A stretch of 64,000 nt of DNA from Promethearchaeota archaeon (GTDB lineage: Archaea; Asgardarchaeota; Thorarchaeia; Thorarchaeales; Thorarchaeaceae): NCBI GenBank assembly GCA_014728035.1, contig WJMJ01000062.1:23558-87557 (forward strand). Direction: 5' to 3'. Made by a program: the position numbers and the translations under genes. The notes under the pieces were generated by a model that had not been told where the DNA came from, ran no database searches, and worked only from the letters and a program-made list of their open reading frames with translations. Every line of letters starts with the position of its first letter. Within the stretch, counting starts at the first letter, position 1. Positions 1 to 19,422 of this stretch are shown one piece after another.

Positions 1-3000
1 AATGTTACAGTAACTATCTCTGTCGAGGGTAGTTGTGATTCTGGGTGAAGAGCAAAGTAAGCTGAGAGATAGTTTTTAGCCTCGCCTAGAATGGTCTCAT
101 GAGATTGGTCTATAGCAGTCTCAAAATAGATTCCTGTCTTCTGGTATCCAATGCTATTCTCTTGTGAAGCGTCATGGATCCCAAAGATCAATCGGGTGTC
201 ATCTAGCGAGTCGCCTGAAACAGATGAATCACCATCATACACAAATGCTTGCGAATCAGAAAATGCTGAATAGCTCAGTCCAAAACCGGTGGTGATATCC
301 TGAGAGGGGATTCTTATGCTGAATGAATCTCCAGCAGAGAGGGAAATGGACCTATCAAATTCAAACAAGAACACTCCTTCAGTATCAACAGTTTCTTTGG
401 ATTCGTAGCGATGTCCATTGTGGACCAGCTCTATAGAGACTTCCTGGGAAGTAATATCCACATCACTAAGAGAGAGATAGATACCAGACGCCTGTATATC
501 TTCCTTTACCTGTGCTTGTTGTTCGATCGCTCCAGCTATGGAGGGGATGGTAGCCGTGATAGGAATGGATGACAGCTTGGTGACTGTATCTTGTTCACCA
601 AGTCCACGATATCTCCATTCTCCCAACTGATACGGAGGATAGTCCCAATCATCACACAGAGGTGAACTGTCCATCAGCTCGTATCCAACCATCTGAAGTG
701 CAATAGTCTTCAGCGAACTGGAGACCGATGTGTTGAGTAAGAGGTGATGAATCCAATCGTTTTCAACTGGATTTGTCAGCAAGTCAGATGTGACAATTGA
801 CGGTAACATTTCCTTAACATTGTCGAAGTTGCCAAGTGACCAGCTGAGATACTCTGATACTAGGTCTAGGTCAATATCACCAATGAGTGGGCCTGGATCT
901 AATCTTAGGAGAAATTCAAGGCGTCTCATTCGTTCGGGTGATCGAGTGATACCGACTAACGTAAGTATTTGTGTAGCGAGTGAATTGATTCCAGTATCAA
1001 ATGCCATTCCGGTCTTCTTGTAGACATCTTCAGCTTCTGATAGAAGTGCATCTATCTCTGGGAGTAGATCATCTGGAAGAATTGCTGCGATGATCTTTCT
1101 GGCACTACTTCGTGCACCATTGAGGTATGCGGATTTTGTACAACCATCCTTGCCGAGTTTATGATCCGACCTATCAAAATATTTCTCTGCTTTGCCATTT
1201 TCGTTGATAGCTAGAGCGATTGTTTCAAACGGATGAATAGCATCCCCCTTTACTGATGATGTTCGGACGACATATACACCTTCTTTGTAGGGATGGGTAT
1301 GAACGAAGGTTTGAATATTCCCTGTAGATTTGACCCCTGTCATTTTGATGGATGTTTCACCCTCGATTACATTGATAGAGGTTAGATACTTTGCACCGAT
1401 ATCCAGAATGAATCCCGATGAGAACCACATATGTCCCTCACTATCTTTTTGAGCAAGGAGCATCAACGTTCGACTATCAGAAGCATGCTGGGCATCAAGA
1501 TAGGAACCTCCAACAGGATGTTCGATGTCAATAGGAATCCAGATACCGTCGCCTTCATCACTCTTCCAACCATCAGCTGCGTTAAAGGTTGTGTCGGAGG
1601 ATATCAATCCTCTATCTAGTAATTCATTATAGCGAGTTCTGTCAATCGAAGCAATTGCTGCAAAGGAACCATACCTTCTGTTATCAGGCCACTTCTCACC
1701 AGTATAGATATCTCCGGTACGATAGATATCACTTTTAGTATCATGTGTGTTGTGTGATCCTTCATCAACCTCAGCAATAAGTGATTCAAATCGCCATCTA
1801 CTACGTTGCAGCAGATGATATACAGGCGAAAATAAGATAACATCGATCATATTACAGAGCTTCCTGAACTCAATTCGGAATTTTTGAGGAGCTGGTGTTC
1901 CATCTATGACCAGATTCTCTTTATATGCAGGTATCGTATAGATTTCTTCATAGACACTACTGAGAGATTCCTCAACCTGTTTTAGTTCAGAATAACTCTG
2001 AGAGTTTGGTTCGGTCCTATATTTCTCTAGAGCTATTTTATAGTCGGTTATTGTTTTTATCAAAGCGCGTAACTTATCGGCGACACCCCCCTCACCCTCT
2101 TTGCCTCCCCAGAATTCGCGATTACTACTTGTCTGTATCTTTGAAGACCCTCTAAGAGGTGAAACAATGGTATCTTTATTTTCTATTTTGTTAACGATAC
2201 TCGTTAATAGAGCTTTACTAAACTCTGTAATAATGGGAACATCAGCCCTACAAAGACTGCTAAGACGACCGCCAATAAATGGAGACCCTTCATGGGTATA
2301 GCAGATCACGTAATCATCTAGACCATCTAAGGGTAATTTCGAGATTTCTATGACAATATCGTCGTATTGTCCGGATATTTCTGGTACGGTGAACAGTGTA
2401 GGAATCTCAAAATCGTTATCAATAAAAAAAGAATGTAGGACTTTCCCCGGATTACGAGAACCTAGAAGTGGAGTTTGGACAGGATTATTGGAATTGCTTC
2501 CTTTTTGCGGATAGATTTGACCAACGGGCAATTCAATCTGGATAGAAATTTCAGAAAATTTCTCCCATGACTTAAACAGAGAAAGATATCTTTCAACGAG
2601 TCGACCTGTTCTATCTTCATATTTTATCTTTTTTTTACCATATTCCGTATCGGTAAATCCAAGTGGATGAATAGTTGTACTTATTTTTTCAGTTTCTCTT
2701 TTATTCTCTTTCAGGATTCTAGACATGAAATTTTGAGCAATGTCGGCCTCATCGAGATAGATTTTTCCAAGTAGCTTGCCAGAGTCTATCCGAACCCATG
2801 AACTCCTAGTTTCAGATACTATTTTTGCACCACTCATAGGAATCTTATATTTATCGGAGTCTTCATAGCGTGCTGCCCAATAGAACAGTTTCTCAAAGGT
2901 ATCAATATTCTTAGAAGGGTTAGGACCCGATTCTGTTTTTCCTTCACATAGAGCACTAGGAAAACCTATTTCTCCAAGAATAGAATTAGAAATGCCACTC

Positions 3001-6000
3001 GTTTTAGATATATCAATGGCATGTTTCATCAATGCATCGGGGTCTATAGTAATAGCACCTTCTTCGATTCGCAGGATACCAGTTACCTCTGCATCTTTGA
3101 ACAAGTCGAGCTCCTTTGGTTCCAGATCGGATTCTTTTCGTCCAAGTAGTTTATGATATTCCTGCTTAAGATAGACTATCTTCTGGGGACGGATCTCTCC
3201 TGATTCATCTCTGGAATATAGAGCTACAAATATTGGAGGAATATCGCTTCCCACTAGACCATGCCGTTCAGATTGAGCGCTTGTGGTCTTCAGTATTTCT
3301 ACTTTCTCTGATTCTTTATTGATTCGTCTGTATTCTACCATATCACGAAGATGCTTTCCCGAAGAAGGCTTTGCAAAGTAGTGAAGTAGTGCAATCCGGG
3401 TATTCTTAACATCATCTAGCTCACCCATCTTTATTGCAAGAGTTTCAACTGCACCTCGCACCGTACCAATGAGATGAGTAAGAACCTTGTCAACATCTTC
3501 AGATATTTCAAATTCCTGTAGGATTTGTTGCGAGATAGCTATGACCACATCAGGAACACTGAGTAGACCTCTTTCACTTGAGACTGAGAGCAATCCACCC
3601 TCATGAACTTCAAAAGACGATAGTGAACTGTGAAGATGTGCCAAAGCGAGATAGAAGATATCGGTGGGTGATAATTCTAATGATTTCAGCTCCTCTGGAG
3701 AAATGCCCTTATCAATACATAGTTTGGCCAGAGCCAACCGACCAAGTTCTTGACCCAAGGTAATACCTCTCTGTCTACAGGATAATTGCCGCATCAATGA
3801 TGCGGCTCTTATGGGGGAGATGATGCTACGAGACTCAAAAGCACCGCCAATCTCGTAAGAGAGGATCTTGTCAAGAATACCATAGTCTCTATTGTCAGTA
3901 TTATCTGGAACTAGTTGAGACATGAATATGATCTCAGCAAGAATCATTGCAAATCTTACAGCTTCATCTTTAGCTGGTGTTATTAGGTCTGAGTCCTCAG
4001 ACTTACCATCTTTCTCCACTAGAGCTCGGTATGCCTTGTTCAATCTATCAATTTCAGTAGGGTCAGTAAGAAGATTCTCTATTTCTCGATGTAGACTAGT
4101 AGGCATTAATGTGACCCTAGCATATCTTCTTCCTTGAATCACCTTGTATAATTTGTCCAATCGGCCTTTCAGATCTGTGGGATTCATGTTATTAGATATC
4201 TTGATATTTGTTTCATATTCTACATCGATAATAGGATGCCCCCTTCGTTGGTATACCTCGATTGCACGAACTGCAACAGGATGCATTAGTAGAGGTAGCA
4301 GAGAGTCCATTCCCGGAGTGAAACGCGCTACAGTCAAGAAGCCTTCAATAATAAGTAGTGCATCTCTAAACGAAACTTCATCCTTCATGCGGCCCATATT
4401 AAACTCACGTAGAAGACTTGCAATCTCCGCATCCAGACGCATCGTTTGAATCTCTTGTTTGCTATGCAGAAGAACAAGATTGCGAGACAAATATTGAAAT
4501 CCAAGATTATCAAGGCTGTATTCCCCAATACTTTTTGTAGTAGTCGAGAGCATTTTTTCAACATTGATCATTTCCGAGTGAAACTGGTCTGTAAGGTCGA
4601 TTGTGACCCTAATTTCAGGGTTGTTTCCTAGAAGATTTTGGAGTAGCGGTGTCTTCAAAGTCTTCGTGAATTCTGAGGAGGTAAAATCAGGAGAAAATTG
4701 ATTCAAAAAGCTTGGAGTAAATGGGGATGATTTGTCAGCTCTACTAACGGATATGGAGAAATTCTTCAGAGTGACCTGGCCATTATATCCGGCCTCTGTA
4801 GCACGAACCTGAATGATGACCTCATTGGAGAATACCTGAGTATCTATGGGTATTGTGCTGGTCCACCGTTTTTGATCTCTTTGGGTCTCGATACATTCAC
4901 AGGTATGTCTACGAGTGGTATTGTCATAGTATAGGAGAATATCAACAGAGGAAACATCAACAGTGTCAACAGTAAGACATTCAATATCAAGTTCGGGTCT
5001 TTGTGTCATCGAATCAATGACCAGTCTTTGTTGAAAAGGCTTGACCAGCTCGATGTGGGTCTTATGGATGAAGACATTCTCATATGAGGTCCAAGGAGCA
5101 TATTCCAGACTTCCAATGGAAGATTCCCATTTTCCAAATAGCTCCTGAATCTTCCCAAATGGCAGTCCCAAGGACACAGTTGGAGATAGTTCCATCAGGA
5201 ACATGAATAGAAATACCAAAGATAGTACCATCATCGTTCTTTTAGGAGAGACAAAACTAATTCCAATCCCAACCAATGTTAATGAGAGAAACAGAAAGAC
5301 CAAATCATTGTCAGGAGTCTCAGACGTGGAAGGTTCGGAAAGAAGTTCTGCAACCGGATAGTTATATCGATCTTTTAGATTCCAACATATTGAACTATCA
5401 TTCTGTTCTGAGATTACATACGGGGTATAAGTCTGGTATATTTCTGAGGTCAGATTCAATAGGGTATCGCGAAGTAGAAGTAAAGAAAGCCCTTCTGATA
5501 GTGAAGTGGTCCGTTTTGTTTGACCAGAATACCAAGAAGATAGATCTAGCTTTACTCGTTTTAGGAGGTCTGCAATCTCCTTTGGTCCAGACTCTGTTGA
5601 AAATAAGGAGTCTAATGCATCAAGTCGTATGAGTGTGTTGATCGATTTGTAAGTAGCTTGGTGAGAGGTCATAGTGGAAGTTGGAGGGAATGAATTCGAA
5701 TCATAATCATAGAGTGACACAATTCGTTCTGCTATTGATTCAGTATCGATAAGATGAGAGATGATTGCCGAGTCATAAGAGTGAGTACCGACCATAAAGT
5801 GAAGTAGTTCCGTATATTGAACAATCGAATCCAGACCAGAATTCGCAAGTTCCTCACTCAGATCATTGAACAATACCAAATCCAAGACTAACATGTTATC
5901 TTTGCGAGCAGGCTCATAGTCCGACCACGTGAGTTTCACGTCAGAGATTTGAAAAGGAGATAGTCCTAGTTCAGAGTAGAAACCTGTTGTGTGAGCTATT

Positions 6001-6518
6001 CTCAATACCCAATAGTAGACAGCGAGGTTATCGAGGTTGCTTAGACTCCGTAAAGATACAGACCGTCTAAAAGAGGAATGGAGATAACGACGTACATCTT
6101 CCAAGACTTCTCTTGGAATACCACCTATATGATTCAAGATTTCGAGACTAAATGCAGTTGTTTCAAAATCAGGTCCAGCAGATGCATCAGTCTGAAAACC
6201 ACCCTGAATAGGCTCATGCTGGGCTAGTACATCATCCCGAACCCTATCCAATATCTCTGACAGTCTTGCATCCCATTCAGAATCGGATGCTAATTCCAAT
6301 AGCTGTAGAGCTGATAATGTGGATGATAATGTTGCATTACTCCCAGGTGTATCTCCAAATCCGTGATTCAGAGGATCGTAACAATCGACAAGATACGAGG
6401 GGATATCGATGTGTTGTTCTGAGACTTGATTCGTTGACGCGGTCATAACAACAGAACTGGATAGAATCAAGACCATCACAAGTATGTATTGACTTAGTAA
6501 CTTCGCATTGAACTGCAT
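1..6518 (-). CDS. Giant (>2172 aa, 3'-truncated by window edge) exported/membrane-anchored protein: signal peptide, prenyltransferase/squalene-cyclase-like repeats, TM hairpin, beta-rich domains, internal JAB/MPN-like domain
   Basis: Manual translation from ATG at 6518-6516 (MQFNAKLLSQYILVMVLILSSSVVMTAS...) has no stop down to base 3. GGGAG lies upstream. Motifs GFGDTPGSNATLSSTLSAL and GGFQTDASAGPDFETTAFSL; hydrophobic pair LVFLFLSLTLVGIGISFV / TMMVLSLVFLFMFLM; FVHTHP at 1290-1307. Confidence 0.9.
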   Translation of the reverse strand, partial: MQFNAKLLSQYILVMVLILSSSVVMTASTNQVSEQHIDIPSYLVDCYDPLNHGFGDTPGSNATLSSTLSALQLLELASDSEWDARLSEILDRVRDDVLAQHEPIQGGFQTDASAGPDFETTAFSLEILNHIGGIPREVLEDVRRYLHSSFRRSVSLRSLSNLDNLAVYYWVLRIAHTTGFYSELGLSPFQISDVKLTWSDYEPARKDNMLVLDLVLFNDLSEELANSGLDSIVQYTELLHFMVGTHSYDSAIISHLIDTESIAERIVSLYDYDSNSFPPTSTMTSHQATYKSINTLIRLDALDSLFSTESGPKEIADLLKRVKLDLSSWYSGQTKRTTSLSEGLSLLLLRDTLLNLTSEIYQTYTPYVISEQNDSSICWNLKDRYNYPVAELLSEPSTSETPDNDLVFLFLSLTLVGIGISFVSPKRTMMVLSLVFLFMFLMELSPTVSLGLPFGKIQELFGKWESSIGSLEYAPWTSYENVFIHKTHIELVKPFQQRLVIDSMTQRPELDIECLTVDTVDVSSVDILLYYDNTTRRHTCECIETQRDQKRWTSTIPIDTQVFSNEVIIQVRATEAGYNGQVTLKNFSISVSRADKSSPFTPSFLNQFSPDFTSSEFTKTLKTPLLQNLLGNNPEIRVTIDLTDQFHSEMINVEKMLSTTTKSIGEYSLDNLGFQYLSRNLVLLHSKQEIQTMRLDAEIASLLREFNMGRMKDEVSFRDALLIIEGFLTVARFTPGMDSLLPLLMHPVAVRAIEVYQRRGHPIIDVEYETNIKISNNMNPTDLKGRLDKLYKVIQGRRYARVTLMPTSLHREIENLLTDPTEIDRLNKAYRALVEKDGKSEDSDLITPAKDEAVRFAMILAEIIFMSQLVPDNTDNRDYGILDKILSYEIGGAFESRSIISPIRAASLMRQLSCRQRGITLGQELGRLALAKLCIDKGISPEELKSLELSPTDIFYLALAHLHSSLSSFEVHEGGLLSVSSERGLLSVPDVVIAISQQILQEFEISEDVDKVLTHLIGTVRGAVETLAIKMGELDDVKNTRIALLHYFAKPSSGKHLRDMVEYRRINKESEKVEILKTTSAQSERHGLVGSDIPPIFVALYSRDESGEIRPQKIVYLKQEYHKLLGRKESDLEPKELDLFKDAEVTGILRIEEGAITIDPDALMKHAIDISKTSGISNSILGEIGFPSALCEGKTESGPNPSKNIDTFEKLFYWAARYEDSDKYKIPMSGAKIVSETRSSWVRIDSGKLLGKIYLDEADIAQNFMSRILKENKRETEKISTTIHPLGFTDTEYGKKKIKYEDRTGRLVERYLSLFKSWEKFSEISIQIELPVGQIYPQKGSNSNNPVQTPLLGSRNPGKVLHSFFIDNDFEIPTLFTVPEISGQYDDIVIEISKLPLDGLDDYVICYTHEGSPFIGGRLSSLCRADVPIITEFSKALLTSIVNKIENKDTIVSPLRGSSKIQTSSNREFWGGKEGEGGVADKLRALIKTITDYKIALEKYRTEPNSQSYSELKQVEESLSSVYEEIYTIPAYKENLVIDGTPAPQKFRIEFRKLCNMIDVILFSPVYHLLQRSRWRFESLIAEVDEGSHNTHDTKSDIYRTGDIYTGEKWPDNRRYGSFAAIASIDRTRYNELLDRGLISSDTTFNAADGWKSDEGDGIWIPIDIEHPVGGSYLDAQHASDSRTLMLLAQKDSEGHMWFSSGFILDIGAKYLTSINVIEGETSIKMTGVKSTGNIQTFVHTHPYKEGVYVVRTSSVKGDAIHPFETIALAINENGKAEKYFDRSDHKLGKDGCTKSAYLNGARSSARKIIAAILPDDLLPEIDALLSEAEDVYKKTGMAFDTGINSLATQILTLVGITRSPERMRRLEFLLRLDPGPLIGDIDLDLVSEYLSWSLGNFDNVKEMLPSIVTSDLLTNPVENDWIHHLLLNTSVSSSLKTIALQMVGYELMDSSPLCDDWDYPPYQLGEWRYRGLGEQDTVTKLSSIPITATIPSIAGAIEQQAQVKEDIQASGIYLSLSDVDITSQEVSIELVHNGHRYESKETVDTEGVFLFEFDRSISLSAGDSFSIRIPSQDITTGFGLSYSAFSDSQAFVYDGDSSVSGDSLDDTRLIFGIHDASQENSIGYQKTGIYFETAIDQSHETILGEAKNYLSAYFALHPESQLPSTEIVTVT

Positions 6519-6892
6519 AGGAATTCTACTCCCAACCCGAACACCAATAGACAGCTATGATGGATTGATATGACATACTCCTTCATATGGACCTACTTTA
6601 CGGTGTTGCTTGAAATTTCGTTGTGACGCAATAATATAAACCACTATCGATAACTTATCATCCATAATATAATACCTCTATTCAATGTACGGAGTTGTTA
6701 TAGAACCCCACTAATGTAGATATGTTATAATAACCCGTAGAAAGAATAAACGAACGCTATTTACTCCAGTATCCTGTTTTGTTTGCTGATTCTTTTCACC
6801 CCAAGAGGCAAGATTAGAAAGAAAATGCCTCATTAGTCATCTTCTACGAGCTTAAAAGGGAAGGATATCAAGAGAGTATTGGTGGAGTCCGT

Positions 6893-8539
6893 TTGGTTGA
6901 CACAGAAGTGGTATATCTCGTGAGTGGACTGGGTCCAACAGTGGAATTCAATGTCGTGGATGTCGAATCTGACTCATTTCGACTCTCTATCCTTCGTTCT
7001 TCTACGGAATTGCCAGCGGGTAGGTTGGGCTTAGTACATATAGATCTAGAACCCCTCAGAGAGTGTAAGGATTTGGAAAAGATAGATCTGTTTGGGAACT
7101 TTTTTGAGTCAATAGATCTATCACCTTTAGCTTATTGTGAGTCTATACAAGAGGTCATCCTGGAAGAGAATGAACTCACCGAGATAGACCTCACTCCACT
7201 CTCTGCATGTAAGAATCTTAGGAAGCTAGAGATAGATGAAAACAGACTCGAACAGGTGGACCTAGAACCCATATCATCCTGCGAAAGACTTCGAAGTCTC
7301 GGTCTGGCATCCAATCGGCTAACTGAGATAGACCTGTCACCTCTGGTATCGTGCACGGACCTTACTTACCTTTTACTCAGTGGAAACAACCTACATCAGA
7401 TAGACCTGTCACCTCTGGCCTCATGTAAGAAGTTGAAGTTGGTTGGCTTAGAAATAAATAAGTTAGAACATATCGACTTGTCTTCTCTATCGTCATGTCC
7501 TGGGCTGTATCTTCTGGGTCTTAGTGATAATTTTCTGGATAGCTTTACCCTTGACGCACTAACAGGATGCAAGGACGTAGAGAGGGTGTCCATAGATGGT
7601 AATTCTCTATCATATATTGACCTATCCCTTGTGTTTTGTTTCCCCCAGCTAAAGAAATTTTCAATTTCAGACCGAGAGGGCAACCTACCTGAACTGAGAT
7701 ACATCTTCAGACCAAGTATGCCGCCAGATATTGAGGACGATTGGTACAATAGATTGACATGGAAGGATATCCCCACCATAATAGAGCAAGATGGCTGGAA
7801 GACACTCTCCAATCAACTCGTGATGAAGATACAAGAACTATCATATCTCAATAGACTCTTTCTCCAAGGAGAAGTATTGACACAGTTGGATTTAGAACAT
7901 TTTCGAATTCTCGATGCAGACCTGAGAGAGGTCATGAGAAACATCCCGGATCACAGAGATGTACACTCTATAAGACGGGAATTTCGGAAACGACTCATTC
8001 CGCTACTGCAGACTCAGATAGAAAAAGGGGGCCCAACTCATCTAATAGATATCGAAGACATCACAAGGGACGAGGGAGCTAGGCTTCTTGCACCCATATT
8101 GCGTTCACGTATGGAAGAAGACAGACATCTCTATGTCCTCAAACAAGAGAGAACTATTGAAGGTGAATGTGAAGTTGTCTACGACCTCACTCCACTCTAT
8201 TTCACTGCTCATGGATATCAACTTGTCATCAACCTCGTTGAGAGTGGCATTCTTCAAAGGCAGCAGGGGTTACGATTATCTGCAAATCAATTTCACCAGA
8301 TAGATGAACAACTGACTCAGAACGATATAGAAATAGAGATGTCCCAGTCAATACAGCCATTGCATACCGTGATATCAGAGGCACAAATGTATTACATGTT
8401 AGATTGGAACAGAGAGATAACTCTCAACAAGTATTATGTGAACCCATTCTTCGAGTCATATACCAATTACTTCTTCCAACCTGCTAGTGCAGACGCATTT
8501 CCAGACCCTCCAGAGCATTTACGACAAGCGCATCACTAG
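6893..8539 (+). CDS. Leucine-rich repeat protein (about 9-10 22-aa IDLxPL repeats) with uncharacterised C-terminal domain
   Basis: Repeats LxxLxLxxNxLxxIDLxPLxxC; GGTGGAG upstream of the TTG start. Confidence 0.9.
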   Translation: MVDTEVVYLVSGLGPTVEFNVVDVESDSFRLSILRSSTELPAGRLGLVHIDLEPLRECKDLEKIDLFGNFFESIDLSPLAYCESIQEVILEENELTEIDLTPLSACKNLRKLEIDENRLEQVDLEPISSCERLRSLGLASNRLTEIDLSPLVSCTDLTYLLLSGNNLHQIDLSPLASCKKLKLVGLEINKLEHIDLSSLSSCPGLYLLGLSDNFLDSFTLDALTGCKDVERVSIDGNSLSYIDLSLVFCFPQLKKFSISDREGNLPELRYIFRPSMPPDIEDDWYNRLTWKDIPTIIEQDGWKTLSNQLVMKIQELSYLNRLFLQGEVLTQLDLEHFRILDADLREVMRNIPDHRDVHSIRREFRKRLIPLLQTQIEKGGPTHLIDIEDITRDEGARLLAPILRSRMEEDRHLYVLKQERTIEGECEVVYDLTPLYFTAHGYQLVINLVESGILQRQQGLRLSANQFHQIDEQLTQNDIEIEMSQSIQPLHTVISEAQMYYMLDWNREITLNKYYVNPFFESYTNYFFQPASADAFPDPPEHLRQAHH

Positions 8540-8764
8540 TATGGAACCGAGAATGGGAAAGATTGTAAAATCAAATCCGGGTTCGGTAACTCCAATACTA
8601 AAACCAGCTCTTATCTGGGTGAATAGCACCATGAAAATTATTGTTGAATCAAACTCCGAATTAGCCACCCAGTATATCGCTTCTGAATCAAAATCTCTTT
8701 CACAAATATACCCTCTGCTATAAAGAATCCAGTGTCTAAATCCGGTTTTTCTCTGTGTAATCAA
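8540..8764 (-). pseudogene. Frameshifted, truncated remnant resembling the N-terminus of an ABC-2 type permease
   Basis: AGGAGG 8 nt before TTG. Joining frames gives MITQRKTGFRHWI / FIAEGIFVKEILIQKRYTGWLIRSLIQ / IIFMVLFTQIRAGF...FPILGSIL, which breaks off at the LRR gene end. Confidence 0.45.
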
Positions 8765-9044
8765 TTACCATTCCTCCTACAAATTAATCTTTGGATGTTT
8801 GTTTGAATCAAGTTATACACTGACAGATACCTCCAAATTATCATCTGTTAGAAAAAAGCATCCTCAAGAGTTGCCTCTCCAAGATTCTAAGATATATCCT
8901 AACTAATCGAGCTTCGTCAGAGAGCCTAACTGCATCAATGATATGTTTGATAGCTCGTTCCTCATAACTACATTGATATTCAAACATGTATACCATTTCT
9001 TAGAATCAAGACAAATCTTTACAGCCGAATGCTGTTGTTGATGG

Positions 9045-10844
9045 GTGATAAAATTGAGCGAAGATAATGAACACAAAACCGTCGTTATTGACCTAGAGGA
9101 AACCGAAAGAAGTAGAATCGGTGAACTCAGCGATTTGGAAGCAAGCGAAGCCTCTGGTGTACTGAGTGTTAACAACATTTCAGAAGCAAATAGAATCTGG
9201 AATGTTCGAGTACTTCTTAATGATAGCCGTACAAAAACCAGCTATTCAGAGGATGTATTGCAAGCCGGAGAGATTGATACGGGTGGAAGATGGGAGAGTC
9301 AATACACAATCACTATTGATAAACCAATTCTCACTCTAACAGAAGTATATGACACATGTCAAACAGTAGAAACAGAGTTACCACATTGGGCATATGTTCA
9401 TGGAAAAGACAATCCAGTCAAAATTACCATTGTTGTCAAGAATGAAACGGATGGGCAGATGGACAATATCATTCTAAATAAGACCATACCTCCAGAATTA
9501 ATGGATGTCAAAATAGAGAGTTCAAAATCAGGTGTAGCTGAATATGATGAGGGGACAAGACAAATCGTCTGGAAAGACTTCATCATCTATCCCAATGAAG
9601 ACTCTCAGATAGTCATTACTGCAACAGCAAATGTTGAAGATGTAGAACCGAAAAATGCAGGGGAAATAGTGGTAACATATAGAGCAGAAGGCCAGCAAAG
9701 ATCAGCGTTACTACCTGATATGACCGCGCTCACAGAATTCCTCTCTGGAATTGACACTGCTGAAACACAGCCAAATCAGTGGGAAGTCACATTAGAGTGT
9801 GGAAATGAGAGCGACCTCATGGTTAGGTTGGATAAAGCCGCTGTAATTCTAACACCTGAAGATGGTGGAGCTGATACCAAAATGATTGATGAAACGCCTT
9901 CAGCAAAACTAGCACCTGGTGAGGAATGGAGTGCATCATTTGAGATTGAAAGTAAATCACCACCTCAATGTACACCTGAAGTTACGTATACACCAATGAG
10001 AGTGATTACAAATAGGGTGCTTGGTACTGTTGAGAAAGTGCCACAAACAATTCCAGTATACAAGATAGAATATACCAAGGTATTTGATCCACCAGAAGTC
10101 AATAGCTTCGACAAAACACCTGTGGAAGTCGAAATTGAATTAAAGAATGCTGGAACTGCTAGACTGAATGAGATAATAATAATTGATCAAATGCCTGACG
10201 ACATAATGCCACCAAAAGCAGAACATGTTTCAATATGGATTCGAGGAGAAGAATACACTGGTGAGTTTGATTTAGTTATCGACCCAGATGACCAAAATCC
10301 GGAAGTTCCACACCAGATTACTATTCATATCAAAAATCTGAAAGATTCTGTAGGAGAAATTCAACCAGGAGAAGTTGTCAAAGTCAATTATGCTATCATG
10401 GCGTGGCGAAATAGACCTGAGAAGGAGTATCCGTCACCAATCCATTGTAAAGCAAATACGTTCCCACCAGGGCTCGAAGCAGAAGTTTCTAGTCCAGAAG
10501 ATGGCCATAAATTGGGAATTGTCTACAAGAAGAGACGAATCTCTGTTAAGAAGGCAATCAACAAGGGAGCGAATCCTGGAGAATATACTGTTGTACTCAT
10601 CGTGGAAAACAAGGGTGAAGTCACAGTTGAGAATGTAGAAGTGACAGATTGGATTCCAATGGGCTTTGAATTTGTATCGGTTGACCCAGCAGATGAATCC
10701 CCGACATTGAGTAATATTGCAGATGGTACCAACATGGTGTGGAAATGGACCAGGATGAACCCAGGCGACAAGACAAAACTCAGAGTTGCTGTCCAAGGAG
10801 AAGGAGAATACGAACGACGAGAGCCTGCAGTGGCTTCAGATTAA
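9045..10844 (+). CDS. Cytoplasmic all-beta protein: N-terminal mu-homology-domain-like (AP-mu/delta-COP) region plus DUF11/Ig-like domains
   Basis: No signal peptide or TM. VVIDLEETERSRIGELSDLEASEASGVLSV and NIILNKTIPPEL...GVAEYDEGTRQIVW...IVVTY...S follow the MHD strand pattern. Start may be TTG at 9054 (GGTGA SD). Confidence 0.65.
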   Translation: MIKLSEDNEHKTVVIDLEETERSRIGELSDLEASEASGVLSVNNISEANRIWNVRVLLNDSRTKTSYSEDVLQAGEIDTGGRWESQYTITIDKPILTLTEVYDTCQTVETELPHWAYVHGKDNPVKITIVVKNETDGQMDNIILNKTIPPELMDVKIESSKSGVAEYDEGTRQIVWKDFIIYPNEDSQIVITATANVEDVEPKNAGEIVVTYRAEGQQRSALLPDMTALTEFLSGIDTAETQPNQWEVTLECGNESDLMVRLDKAAVILTPEDGGADTKMIDETPSAKLAPGEEWSASFEIESKSPPQCTPEVTYTPMRVITNRVLGTVEKVPQTIPVYKIEYTKVFDPPEVNSFDKTPVEVEIELKNAGTARLNEIIIIDQMPDDIMPPKAEHVSIWIRGEEYTGEFDLVIDPDDQNPEVPHQITIHIKNLKDSVGEIQPGEVVKVNYAIMAWRNRPEKEYPSPIHCKANTFPPGLEAEVSSPEDGHKLGIVYKKRRISVKKAINKGANPGEYTVVLIVENKGEVTVENVEVTDWIPMGFEFVSVDPADESPTLSNIADGTNMVWKWTRMNPGDKTKLRVAVQGEGEYERREPAVASD

Positions 10845-17121: not shown

Positions 17122-18219
17122 ATGGATATACGAATATTATTTTGTGAGGGACCGCAAGTGGAAAAGCATCGAATGGTAAGTCAGATAATATCCGATAATA
17201 TGGACCAATTAGTTGAGGAACTTATCTCATGTCAATGGGAAATAGATACAGAAATAGCAGATCGATATTCTGAACCGCTCATTGAAAAATGCAAAGAGGA
17301 TATTGCATATCACCTGGAATTTTTAGCAACAGCAGTTCGAGTTCAGAGTACTGCAATCTTCAACTCGTATTTGAGATGGACAAAAGTGCTATTCTCAAAT
17401 CTTGGAGTTCCAGAAAAGGAATTTTTAGATAATCTTGAGTGTATTAAGAAAATTTTACCTGCATATCTTTCAGATGAGATTCAAAATATACCAATTGAGT
17501 ATATAGATATAGGAATCAAAGAGCTCGCTTTGGCTAGCTCAGACCTTCCCACATTGATGGGAGAAGATATCCCTATGGCTGCTATAGCAACACAGTATCT
17601 CGACGCACTCCTGAAGGGGAATCGCCGTGCTGCAAGTGCACTGATTATGGATACAGTGAATGAAGGTAGAGAGATAAAAGAGATATATCTGAATATTTTC
17701 GAAAGAACTCAATACGAAATTGGTAGACTTTGGCAAACAAATCAAATCAATGTCGCTCAGGAACACTATTGTACTGCAGCAACACAACTCATTATGGCAC
17801 AATTATATCCATATCTCTTTAGTTCGAAAAAGAAGAATCTCAATATGGTAGCAACTTGTATCTCAGGAGAATTGCATGAGATTGGAATCAGAATGGTGGC
17901 TGACTTGTTTGAGATTGACGGATGGAATACATTCTACTTGGGTGCAAGTACACCGAGAAAAGACATTATTCAAACAATAATAGATAGAGATGTTCAATTA
18001 GTTGCAATCTCAGCCACTTTGCCAACCAATATACCTGAAGTACAGGAATTGATAGAAGAAATTCGAGCTCAGGACAATCTCACACATGTTAAAATTATTG
18101 TTGGAGGACGTCCATTCGGAATGGACCCAAATCTTTGGAAAACTGTTGGAGCAGACGGAACAGCACGAAATGCTGAAGATGCAGTTAAAGTAGGAAACAT
18201 GCTTGTTCAAGGAGATTGA
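17122..18219 (+). CDS. Cobalamin-binding sensor (CarH-type B12 module) with N-terminal globin/phycobiliprotein-like domain; photocobilin-like
   Basis: W-x9-EH (WQTNQINVAQEH), GELHEIG, IIVGG; N-terminal KCKEDIAYHL. Confidence 0.8.
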   Translation: MDIRILFCEGPQVEKHRMVSQIISDNMDQLVEELISCQWEIDTEIADRYSEPLIEKCKEDIAYHLEFLATAVRVQSTAIFNSYLRWTKVLFSNLGVPEKEFLDNLECIKKILPAYLSDEIQNIPIEYIDIGIKELALASSDLPTLMGEDIPMAAIATQYLDALLKGNRRAASALIMDTVNEGREIKEIYLNIFERTQYEIGRLWQTNQINVAQEHYCTAATQLIMAQLYPYLFSSKKKNLNMVATCISGELHEIGIRMVADLFEIDGWNTFYLGASTPRKDIIQTIIDRDVQLVAISATLPTNIPEVQELIEEIRAQDNLTHVKIIVGGRPFGMDPNLWKTVGADGTARNAEDAVKVGNMLVQGD

Positions 18220-18222
18220 TTC

Positions 18223-19422
18223 ATGAGTAGGGTGAAGGCTTCAAGAGGATTCGTAATAATTACGGATAATCATGGACAAATCTCCGATGTACTCCGAGAT
18301 GACCTAGAACTCTTTGATTCAGAAAAAGACTTTCCCAAACTAATTGACATAATGGATAACGAGAGTAAATCAAAAGCAGAATCCTTTCTCTCAGCACTAC
18401 GAACTGAGCAAGCAATCTACGGATGGGAGATGAACATCTTACTTCATGGCGAGATAACTTTAGTATATTTTGTTGGAGCAAGACATCAAAACAATCTACT
18501 TCTAATTGGCTCAACAGACCCTTACGGAACCCATAGTTATTTTGATGAACTCGTTCAAATAAATAATGAACAGGTGAATGCGTTTAGAAGAGCCCTAAAA
18601 GATGTCTTCATGGCAACTTTGAGTGAAACTCAACAGATTGAAGAAATTTATACTCGATTTATGGAGCTCAATAACGAATTAGCTTCCATGCAGAGAAATC
18701 TAGCTAGAAAAAACAGAGAATTGGAAAAATTAAATGAACAGAAAAACAAATTCATTGGAATGATGGCTCACGATCTAAGAAGCCCATTAGGATCAATCTA
18801 CTTGTTAAGTGAATTCATTCTCATGAGCGGAAAAGAAAGACTGAGTGAGGATGAAAAAGAAGCTCTGGAACAAATTGTACAGATGAGCGAGTATATGTCA
18901 AATATTATCAGTGATTTGCTCGACATTTCCGTCATCGAATCTGGCAACTTATCATTAGACCTTCAAAAAGCTGATATCTCAGAATCAATTCAACGTTGTA
19001 TAAAATTGAATCAGTTGTTTGCAGATGAAAAGTCCATCTCAATCATCTCATCACAAAAAGGAGGAGATATTCCGGTGACGATGATGGATATCTCCAAAGT
19101 AGACCAAGTAATAAATAACTTACTCAGCAATGCAATAAAATATTCACCAAGATCTACAACAATACGGATAGTAACACAGGTTGTGGATAAGACAATTGTC
19201 ATAGATGTTTCTGATGAAGGACAGGGAATTCCAAAGAGAGAGTTAGGACGTCTGTTCAAACCATATGGAAAAACTAGTATCGAAACAACTGGAGGCGAAA
19301 AAAGCACAGGTCTTGGGCTAATGATTGTAAAACGGATTGTAGAAGAACATGGCGGCAATATTTGGGTAGAAAGTGTTTATGGCAAAGGCTCAACTTTTTC
19401 CTTTTCCATTCCAATTACCTAA
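18223..19422 (+). CDS. Soluble sensor histidine kinase (PAS-like, coiled coil, HisKA, HATPase)
   Basis: AHDLRSPL (H box), NLLSNAIKY (N), DEGQGI (G1), GLGL (G2). Confidence 0.93.
   Translation: MSRVKASRGFVIITDNHGQISDVLRDDLELFDSEKDFPKLIDIMDNESKSKAESFLSALRTEQAIYGWEMNILLHGEITLVYFVGARHQNNLLLIGSTDPYGTHSYFDELVQINNEQVNAFRRALKDVFMATLSETQQIEEIYTRFMELNNELASMQRNLARKNRELEKLNEQKNKFIGMMAHDLRSPLGSIYLLSEFILMSGKERLSEDEKEALEQIVQMSEYMSNIISDLLDISVIESGNLSLDLQKADISESIQRCIKLNQLFADEKSISIISSQKGGDIPVTMMDISKVDQVINNLLSNAIKYSPRSTTIRIVTQVVDKTIVIDVSDEGQGIPKRELGRLFKPYGKTSIETTGGEKSTGLGLMIVKRIVEEHGGNIWVESVYGKGSTFSFSIPIT

Follow-up and report, generated by a model that had tools for sequence, protein, structure and literature searches.

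Genes for proteins that range from thousands of amino acids (aa) to more than 10,000, mostly without known domains, have been reported from Asgard archaea, including Thorarchaeota (PMC8813620; bioRxiv 10.1101/2023.11.21.568195). Such a gene lies at the left end of the DNA analyzed here, a stretch of 64,000 nucleotides (nt) from a Thorarchaeaceae genome (assembly GCA_014728035.1, contig WJMJ01000062.1, positions 23,558 to 87,557), which we call the window; in our numbering it is G000:C28:23558-87557, G000 being the source genome (4.33 Mb, 173 contigs). The gene, hereafter the giant, is a minus-strand open reading frame (ORF) that starts at window position 6518 and stays open to the window edge, giving 2,172 aa inside the window (codons 1 to 2,172, window 3..6518). 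An earlier note, made from the window alone, had described an ORF of more than 2,172 aa; once recovered from the contig, the full frame proved to be real and to comprise 9,975 codons, uninterrupted and with zero N, up to a stop codon at C28:148-150. The window holds its first fifth, and the remainder lies to the left, at C28:148-23559. At 9,975 aa, the giant is the largest ORF of the genome. It consists, in order, of a signal peptide, a toroid head, a two-helix hairpin, a 1,421-aa Lys/Arg-rich module, a DPGP junction, an acidic body, and a basic tail.

The giant resembles the Asgard giant genes described so far (Wu et al. 2022, PMC8813620; West-Roberts et al. 2023) in its size, its occurrence in Asgard metagenome-assembled genomes (MAGs), and its few known domains, but neither paper describes a toroid head, a transmembrane (TM) hairpin, a variable module free of N-glycosylation sequons, and a [D/N]PG junction together. 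Of the features that Wu et al. describe for the aloposon (giants Otus/Ephialtes), none was seen in the window: no tandem giant pair, no tRNA integration site, and no upstream MinD/ParA gene. With giant adhesins (RTX-type LapA/MpIBP, SiiE) and halomucin-like archaeal giants it shares size, acidic composition, a predicted N-terminal anchor, and carbohydrate-binding-like beta-sandwich domains, which in the giant are modeled at the start of the body. Unlike them, it is almost non-repetitive, yields no RTX, Ig-like, or cadherin Pfam matches, and would have a TM hairpin as its anchor instead of an outer-membrane plug. On the features set out below, we consider that the giant is probably a lineage-specific glycosylated surface fiber, anchored N-terminally in the membrane, whose membrane-proximal module is exchangeable and whose junction is a candidate site of self-cleavage.

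Architecture of the giant and its variable slot

The signal peptide and the TM hairpin of the earlier note were both recovered by hydropathy analysis, at aa 5 to 30 and aa 404 to 452. The first (signal peptide or signal anchor, aa 1 to 30, window 6429..6518) has a hydropathy of 2.14 and is common to all heads compared; the second (window 5163..5309) comprises two helices connected through the short basic loop PKR and is kept in the relatives of genomes G094, G042, and G012. Past the hairpin, hydropathy revealed no further strongly hydrophobic stretch in the whole chain. Between the two lies a predicted exported prenyltransferase-like alpha/alpha-toroid head (aa 31 to 403, window 5310..6428). 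A profile of eight homologous heads matches the Rab geranylgeranyltransferase beta chain 6o60_B (E=1.6e-6) over only ~110 of 370 positions, and PF00432 matches four of the eight below its cut-off (15.9 to 22.5 bits versus 26.5); the head may be an alpha/alpha toroid of the prenyltransferase or terpene-cyclase kind. Signal segment, head, and hairpin are topology features common to the four heads compared. The module that follows the hairpin (aa 453 to 1873, window 900..5162) is rich in Lys, Arg, and Glu. Beyond it stretches a body of ~7,800 aa that is acidic, Ser/Thr-rich, and Lys-poor, and the last ~270 residues form a net basic tail with four weakly hydrophobic helices. The sole internal repeat zone (aa ~6795 to 7480, left of the window) is built of ~115-aa units with 28 to 47% identity and is enlarged and moved in G094 and G042.

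Relatives were sought by six-frame search in 86 species genomes of the family, and the module domain was also sought in 314 other Asgard genomes. Open frames of 9,749 aa (G094) and 10,138 aa (G042), both cut at contig ends, are collinear with the giant from the junction to the end at 25 to 53% identity, apart from different insertions in the repeat zone. An assembly chimera was ruled out, since in these independent MAGs the frame is likewise open and the domains follow in the same order. The giants can be aligned over their heads and bodies but not in the slot between hairpin and junction. This slot holds three module types of similar length (1,257 to 1,421 aa): type A in G000 and G094, with ~21% identity in the slot; type B in G042:C81; and type C in G012. 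BLAST and hhalign found no similarity of the three to one another (probability of at most 10%, with shallow profiles), and G042 carries two giants with different modules. In every comparison of giants, similarity restarts within a few residues of the motif [D/N]PG[P/S], which in our giant is DPGP (aa 1874 to 1877, window 888..899). Thus, the conserved flanks and variable core that the earlier note had envisaged are found among the homologues.

Type-A modules are also encoded on their own, as ~1,200-aa proteins whose C terminus lies exactly before the junction motif. A search of 1.84 billion representative proteins gave only 7 relatives of the module; its conserved domain was found in 10 of the 86 family genomes and in none of the 314 other Asgard genomes. 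The standalone proteins of genus g6 lack a signal peptide, and the module family can therefore also be cytoplasmic, although the copy in G023, and it alone, carries one. In genus g6, the 1,200-aa gene lies directly upstream of rpoA' and rpoA'' on the same strand (L048:5113-13189 in G077:C3 and L049:271-8089 in G065:C340), a position usually occupied by rpoB in archaea; a divergent RpoB was rejected, as no Rpb2 profile matched even at E<=10. Another standalone type-A gene, G023:C277 (L015:1868-5695), has one in-frame stop, with both halves homologous to the giant, and could be a split gene, a pseudogene, or the product of a sequencing error. In G012, contig C20 encodes a head, a hairpin, and a type-C module with no body. 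Contig C40 of the same genome (L014:6442-16748) carries a smaller version in two ORFs overlapping by 31 nt, one of 880 aa (head, hairpin, start of the module) and one of 2,564 aa (rest of the module, an NPGP junction, a short body); the split is possibly a frameshift, real or programmed.

Within the type-A module, the C-terminal domain (aa 1610 to 1873, window 900..1691) is conserved, as judged from an alignment and an AlphaFold2 (AF2) model. Its invariant residues include W1610, G1617, D1675, D1681, K1710, E1721, S1784, H1786, and Y1798, and the model of aa 1560 to 1880, built from 11 sequences, combines a beta sheet with a helical bundle at a mean predicted local distance difference test score (pLDDT) of 63.5, the last helices reaching ~85 to 96. 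The AT-rich part of the module that had been noted earlier is a Lys/Ile-rich stretch at aa 1171 to 1420 (window 2259..3008), where the GC content is 0.376 and that at third codon positions 0.284, versus 0.41 to 0.44 and 0.33 to 0.40 elsewhere in the gene. Against a genome average of 0.395, the dip is modest, and it is mostly a matter of Lys/Ile-rich coding. We rejected a foreign origin of this stretch, since the dip is small and brings it nearer the genome average than the remaining gene.

The body begins within the window (3..887) as an acidic, sequon-enriched segment, with a DIDLDL stretch after the junction motif and a DDWxYPPYxxxEW motif ~85 residues past the junction. Structure comparison of an AF2 model of this region suggested a jelly-roll/carbohydrate-binding module (CBM)/lectin-like sandwich at aa ~1986 to 2119 (window 162-563; Z 8 to 9.8, e.g., 9euf_0 and 4ci7_A) and a flavodoxin-like fold at aa ~2201 to 2291 (Z ~6). 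The matches are not strong, and both parts fit a binding fiber. At the other end, the C-terminal ~600 to 1,400 aa are kept to the final residues in G007, G045, G023, G101, G019, and G054, which represent five genera; therefore, the tip is not polymorphic.

For most of the chain, database searches returned nothing. Along the full 9,975 aa, the Pfam matches were few and stayed below threshold (TSP3_bac, BNR, Reelin), PDB sequence searches with all three thirds of the chain gave no match, the ESM Atlas gave no usable match for the module or the C-terminal 600 aa, PADLOC found nothing in the giant, and NCBIfam likewise recognized almost nothing.

Sequon content and predicted topology

To compare the parts of the giant, observed N-glycosylation sequons were counted against shuffles of the same segment. 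The body is enriched, with 102 sequons versus 69 expected in our giant and 89 versus 48, 126 versus 97, and 27 versus 14.7 in its relatives. In contrast, the modules are depleted, with 2 versus 7.25 in G000 and 1 versus 5.6, 1 versus 10.4, and 0 versus 5.4 in the others, which sums to 4 versus 28.7 expected; from aa 701 to 1856 of the G000 module, there is none (5.1 expected). The genome itself served as the control. Its cytoplasm-like ORFs have a ratio of observed to expected sequons of 1.04 (n=317) and its signal-bearing ORFs one of 1.41 (n=36), near the 1.48 of the body, and at most one sequon is found in just 1 of the 32 cytoplasm-like ORFs in which at least 4.5 are expected. Standalone type-A proteins are much less depleted (16 sequons versus 28.6 expected). 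Since the module lies far below the neutral cytoplasmic level, it seems to be exported, in line with the predicted topology, and to encounter the glycosylation machinery, while selection apparently keeps it bare. The giant as a whole has the marks of an archaeal exported N-glycosylated surface protein, namely a predicted signal peptide, a predicted anchor, and sequon enrichment. We regard the exchangeable module, apparently kept bare by selection, as the most distinctive result of the analysis.

These features suggest the following course for the chain. The signal peptide would export the toroid head, and the hairpin, whose short basic loop should be cytoplasmic by the positive-inside rule, would anchor the chain and restart export, so that everything past the hairpin would lie outside the cell. 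There, the exchangeable Lys/Arg-rich module, which the sequon counts suggest is kept free of N-glycosylation sites, would take up the first ~1,400 aa. The [D/N]-P-G junction, a candidate self-cleavage or hinge site, would come next, followed by the ~7,800-aa acidic, sequon-enriched body with its jelly-roll/CBM-like start, most likely an adhesive or spacing fiber. The chain would end in the conserved basic amphipathic tail; in relatives, the gene of a small single-TM protein follows directly.

Several points weigh against this reading. The evidence for placing the giant at the surface consists of hydropathy, composition, and sequon statistics; ~95% of the chain is without a profile, PDB, or Atlas match; and confidence is low for both AF2 models (pLDDT 63.5 with 11 sequences and 52.1 with 7). 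A plain structural role does not explain the standalone type-A proteins that are capable of residing in the cytoplasm, nor does a simple adhesin account for the swap of unrelated modules at a sharp motif boundary. Moreover, as the hhalign profiles are shallow, the module types may be very distantly homologous, one ancestral module having diverged extremely.

Self-cleavage, effector, and cytoplasmic alternatives

Autocatalytic cleavage at Asn-Pro is known from FlhB/EscU. For Asp-Pro, the self-processing module of FrpC is reported to cut one specific bond (PMC7078468). Like FrpC, the giant is a very large protein with predicted export and has an Asp-Pro at the N-terminal edge of a conserved domain, with acidic residues after it; it has, however, no sequence similarity to the FrpC module, and one member of the giant family has Asn for Asp. 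The giant could be a self-processing adhesin, an alternative already offered in the earlier note, in which the [D/N]-P bond is cut autocatalytically and the head plus module is split from a fiber that is held non-covalently, cross-linked, or shed. The Pro and the Gly of the junction are invariant in 7 sequences, preceded by Asp in six of them and by Asn in the seventh, even where the modules upstream are unrelated; this invariance is why we keep the alternative. The FrpC precedent, the acidic DIDLDL, and standalone modules that stop immediately before the motif also speak for it. On the other side, a junction profile matched no PDB sequence, the solved self-processing modules included, the AF2 model of the junction (pLDDT 52.1 overall, 7 sequences) falls below 50 at the junction itself, and a conserved D-P-G is perhaps a mere domain-linker turn. 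We hold self-processing to be possible, though rather unlikely.

The earlier note had suggested a candidate conflict island in which the giant may carry an effector and a divergent leucine-rich repeat (LRR) gene may provide immunity. In such an archaeal polymorphic effector system, of inverted layout, the sequon-free module would be a payload released at [D/N]-P or by proteolysis, with the LRR protein as its immunity or handling partner. In CdiA and Rhs toxins, the variable part is reportedly set off by VENN and DPxGL motifs, which the slot boundary recalls. The likeness to CdiA, Rhs, and MafB extends to a very long carrier with predicted export, an exchangeable module set off by a short conserved motif ([D/N]PG[P/S] in the giants), standalone module copies, and a small neighbor gene of a repeat family. 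Three unrelated module types in one slot, the purging of sequons from them, and the invariant D, D, K, E, S, H, and Y of the type-A C-terminal domain all speak for an effector, as does the position of the LRR gene at the 5', module-encoding side of the giant. The layout speaks against it: the variable part (aa 453 to 1873) is N-proximal and membrane-adjacent, at the base of a ~7,800-aa fiber rather than at its tip, and it is the distal C terminus that is conserved. In addition, the host is an archaeon with no known delivery route, and arrays of orphan cassettes were not seen.

The JAB part of that proposal did not survive. The JAB-like domain had been suggested by the letters HTHP at aa 1740 to 1743 (window 1290..1301). 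The letters are present, but H-x-H occurs four times in the giant against 4.2 expected (HxHP is expected 0.15 times), and H1740 and H1742 align to non-His residues in 10 of 10 homologues. A JAMM motif reads H-x-H-x7-S-x2-D with an upstream catalytic Glu; in G000, Val1750 stands at the Ser position, and the nearest pair is S1755-x3-D1759 rather than S-x2-D. The JAB, Prok-JAB, and RadC profiles of Pfam did not match aa 453 to 1880 even at E<=10, a profile of the type-A domain retrieved no MPN protein among PDB sequences, and Foldseek with the model of aa 1560 to 1880, whose pLDDT is below 50 around HTHP, returned nothing at E<=0.001. The best VIA-align hits of this model (Z 6.5) are helical bundles only. 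A JAB/MPN (JAMM) metalloprotease is thus rejected: the likeness is solely the letters H-x-H-P in the G000 sequence, the motif is without catalytic meaning, and the JAB reading is dropped together with the ubiquitin link built on it, which averts a false lead. The domain may have some other activity, as its invariant polar residues D1675, D1681, K1710, E1721, S1784, H1786, and Y1798 suggest. More broadly, searches with Pfam, PADLOC, NCBIfam, PDB, the Atlas, and Foldseek yielded neither a profile nor a fold of a toxin, peptidase, or nuclease, and no enzymatic fold was detected in the giant.

The LRR gene itself was confirmed. It lies on the plus strand at window 6893..8539, separated from the giant by a divergent intergenic region of 374 nt (window 6519..6892), and encodes a predicted cytoplasmic protein of 548 aa with LRRs at aa ~50 to 260 and a 290-aa C-terminal domain without a known family. 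LRR_8 matches with 71.3 bits (cut-off 27; E=5.8e-20) and LRR_4 with 48.3 bits; partial internalin-type matches were obtained as well, and neither a signal peptide nor a TM segment was found in the protein. Linkage of such genes across genomes, also anticipated in the earlier note, is real: an LRR gene lies in the upstream flank of 8 of 15 toroid-head loci and in the downstream flank of none, whereas the chance of a 1.5-kb flank touching one of the 29 LRR loci of G000 is ~1.6%. However, the linkage follows the head rather than the module. LRR genes stand beside toroid-only genes without a module in G001 and G005, but none was found in the 10 kb upstream of the start of the G094 giant or adjoining any standalone module, and the LRR type shows no pattern with the module type. 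This distribution does not fit a dedicated immunity gene. The LRR gene is best explained as one of the recurrent pairs in which an LRR gene lies upstream of a toroid-head gene, inverted here; at 7 of the 8 loci, the LRR gene and the head gene point the same way, a divergent arrangement being found only in this window, and the intergenic region has no notable inverted repeats that would explain the inversion. At a further locus, G020:C3 (L066:1-9000), five LRR genes are clustered over 9 kb on and about a decayed fragment of a toroid-head gene that is interrupted by in-frame stops.

Thus, an effector role of the module is a minority possibility, and we consider it unlikely. A more specific form, in which the stretch from the hairpin to [D/N]-P is a cassette slot whose swapped unglycosylated modules are released as effectors on neighboring cells or partners, with LRR proteins as handlers or antidotes, appears still more doubtful; if true, it would be an archaeal counterpart of polymorphic toxin systems on a new scaffold. 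Finally, the module could be cytoplasmic and bindable by the LRR protein, with head and body outside, so that the giant is an outside-in link, which the cytoplasm-like composition of the module and the lack of signal peptides in standalone homologues and of signal peptides or TM segments in LRR proteins would suit, but this is highly improbable given that three membrane passages precede the module and the basic hairpin loop puts it outside, that the absence of a hydrophobic segment between it and the sequon-rich body would leave the body unexportable, that its sequons lie well below the neutral cytoplasmic level, arguing for exposure to the glycosylation machinery, and that the standalone copy of G023 has a signal peptide.

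Distribution, surroundings, and meaning of the giant

The proposed fiber would be specific to one Thorarchaeota family. Among the 86 family genomes, the C-terminal 1,783 aa have matches in 21, the toroid head in 11, and the junction with the body start in 6. The genome G001, of the same genus and 97% complete, has no match to the body, and the giant is therefore an accessory gene; the LRR-plus-toroid pair of G001 is the orthologue of another G000 locus, on C157. A word-indexed protein search found no longer relatives among proteins of 3,802 to 5,000 aa. In another Asgard family, a 14,439-aa ORF (L079-L081, G221:C5:999863-1043179) shows three weak collinear matches to the body, the best being 29% over 371 aa (E=6e-14). 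It has several TM segments and an N-terminal region rich in Lys. It was not taken as a member of the family, as it has weak matches only, a different head, and no LRR gene in the 60 kb examined.

The last ~580 to 930 aa of the giant also occur as standalone proteins, at L034:4271-6019 (G019), L033:8291-10030 (G054), and L032:7320-10106 (G023). These end in the same hydrophobic helix and R-[IM]-P-V-[LM] motif, which may serve to sort or anchor the proteins by their C termini. One base after the stop codon of our giant (TAAGATG), an ORF for a TM protein begins and is cut by the contig end (G000:C28:1-147). Homologous genes for single-TM proteins of ~250 aa, 33 to 35% identical, lie directly 3' of giant-type C-terminal domains in G007, G019, and G054 (L034:6031-6804, L033:9972-10826, L035:1170-1898), and no copy of this partner gene was found elsewhere in G000.

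The broken gene that bounds the LRR gene was also confirmed. It is a minus-strand fragment (window 8495..8965) with stops in all frames, an 83%-identical copy of C45:114416-114881, where the 3' end of an ABC ATPase gene meets the start of the next ORF, presumably a permease. Together with a 90.6%-identical copy of the 3' end of the LRR gene at a contig edge (C115:1-339), the fragment is a sign of local rearrangement; the two copies suggest recent duplication, rearrangement, or a mixture of strains (contamination is estimated at 8.5%). Past the LRR gene follow a DUF11-repeat protein (window 9045-10844; 599 aa, C-terminal repeats of PF01345 type with E=1.6e-14, no evident signal peptide), a DUF5591/TGT_C2/PUA protein, presumably archaeosine-synthesis-like, a radical-SAM protein, a DEAD-box helicase, a B12-binding sensor with a histidine kinase (window 17122-19422; by Pfam, a phycobilisome-like and B12-binding protein and then a soluble histidine kinase), and housekeeping enzymes. 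With such housekeeping surroundings, and no integrase, toxin, or defense gene seen in them, the locus is not a conflict island. Most of what the earlier note observed is borne out, in a gene far larger than the window shows. Its interpretation is partly supported: the outline is right, in that a long and apparently exported carrier has a variable core between conserved flanks and LRR genes recur beside it, whereas the specifics (a JAB domain, immunity, and an island) are not.

Taken together, the results indicated that the giant is probably an anchored, glycosylated surface fiber. The contrast in sequons between module and body offers a cheap and general means of finding segments of archaeal surface proteins that may be kept bare. 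The literature has so far listed the giant genes of Asgard archaea rather than explained them, and for one of these genes a family and its parts are now defined. No known prokaryotes are more closely related to eukaryotes than the Asgard archaea, and models of eukaryote origin give a central place to the surface molecules and cell contacts of this group.

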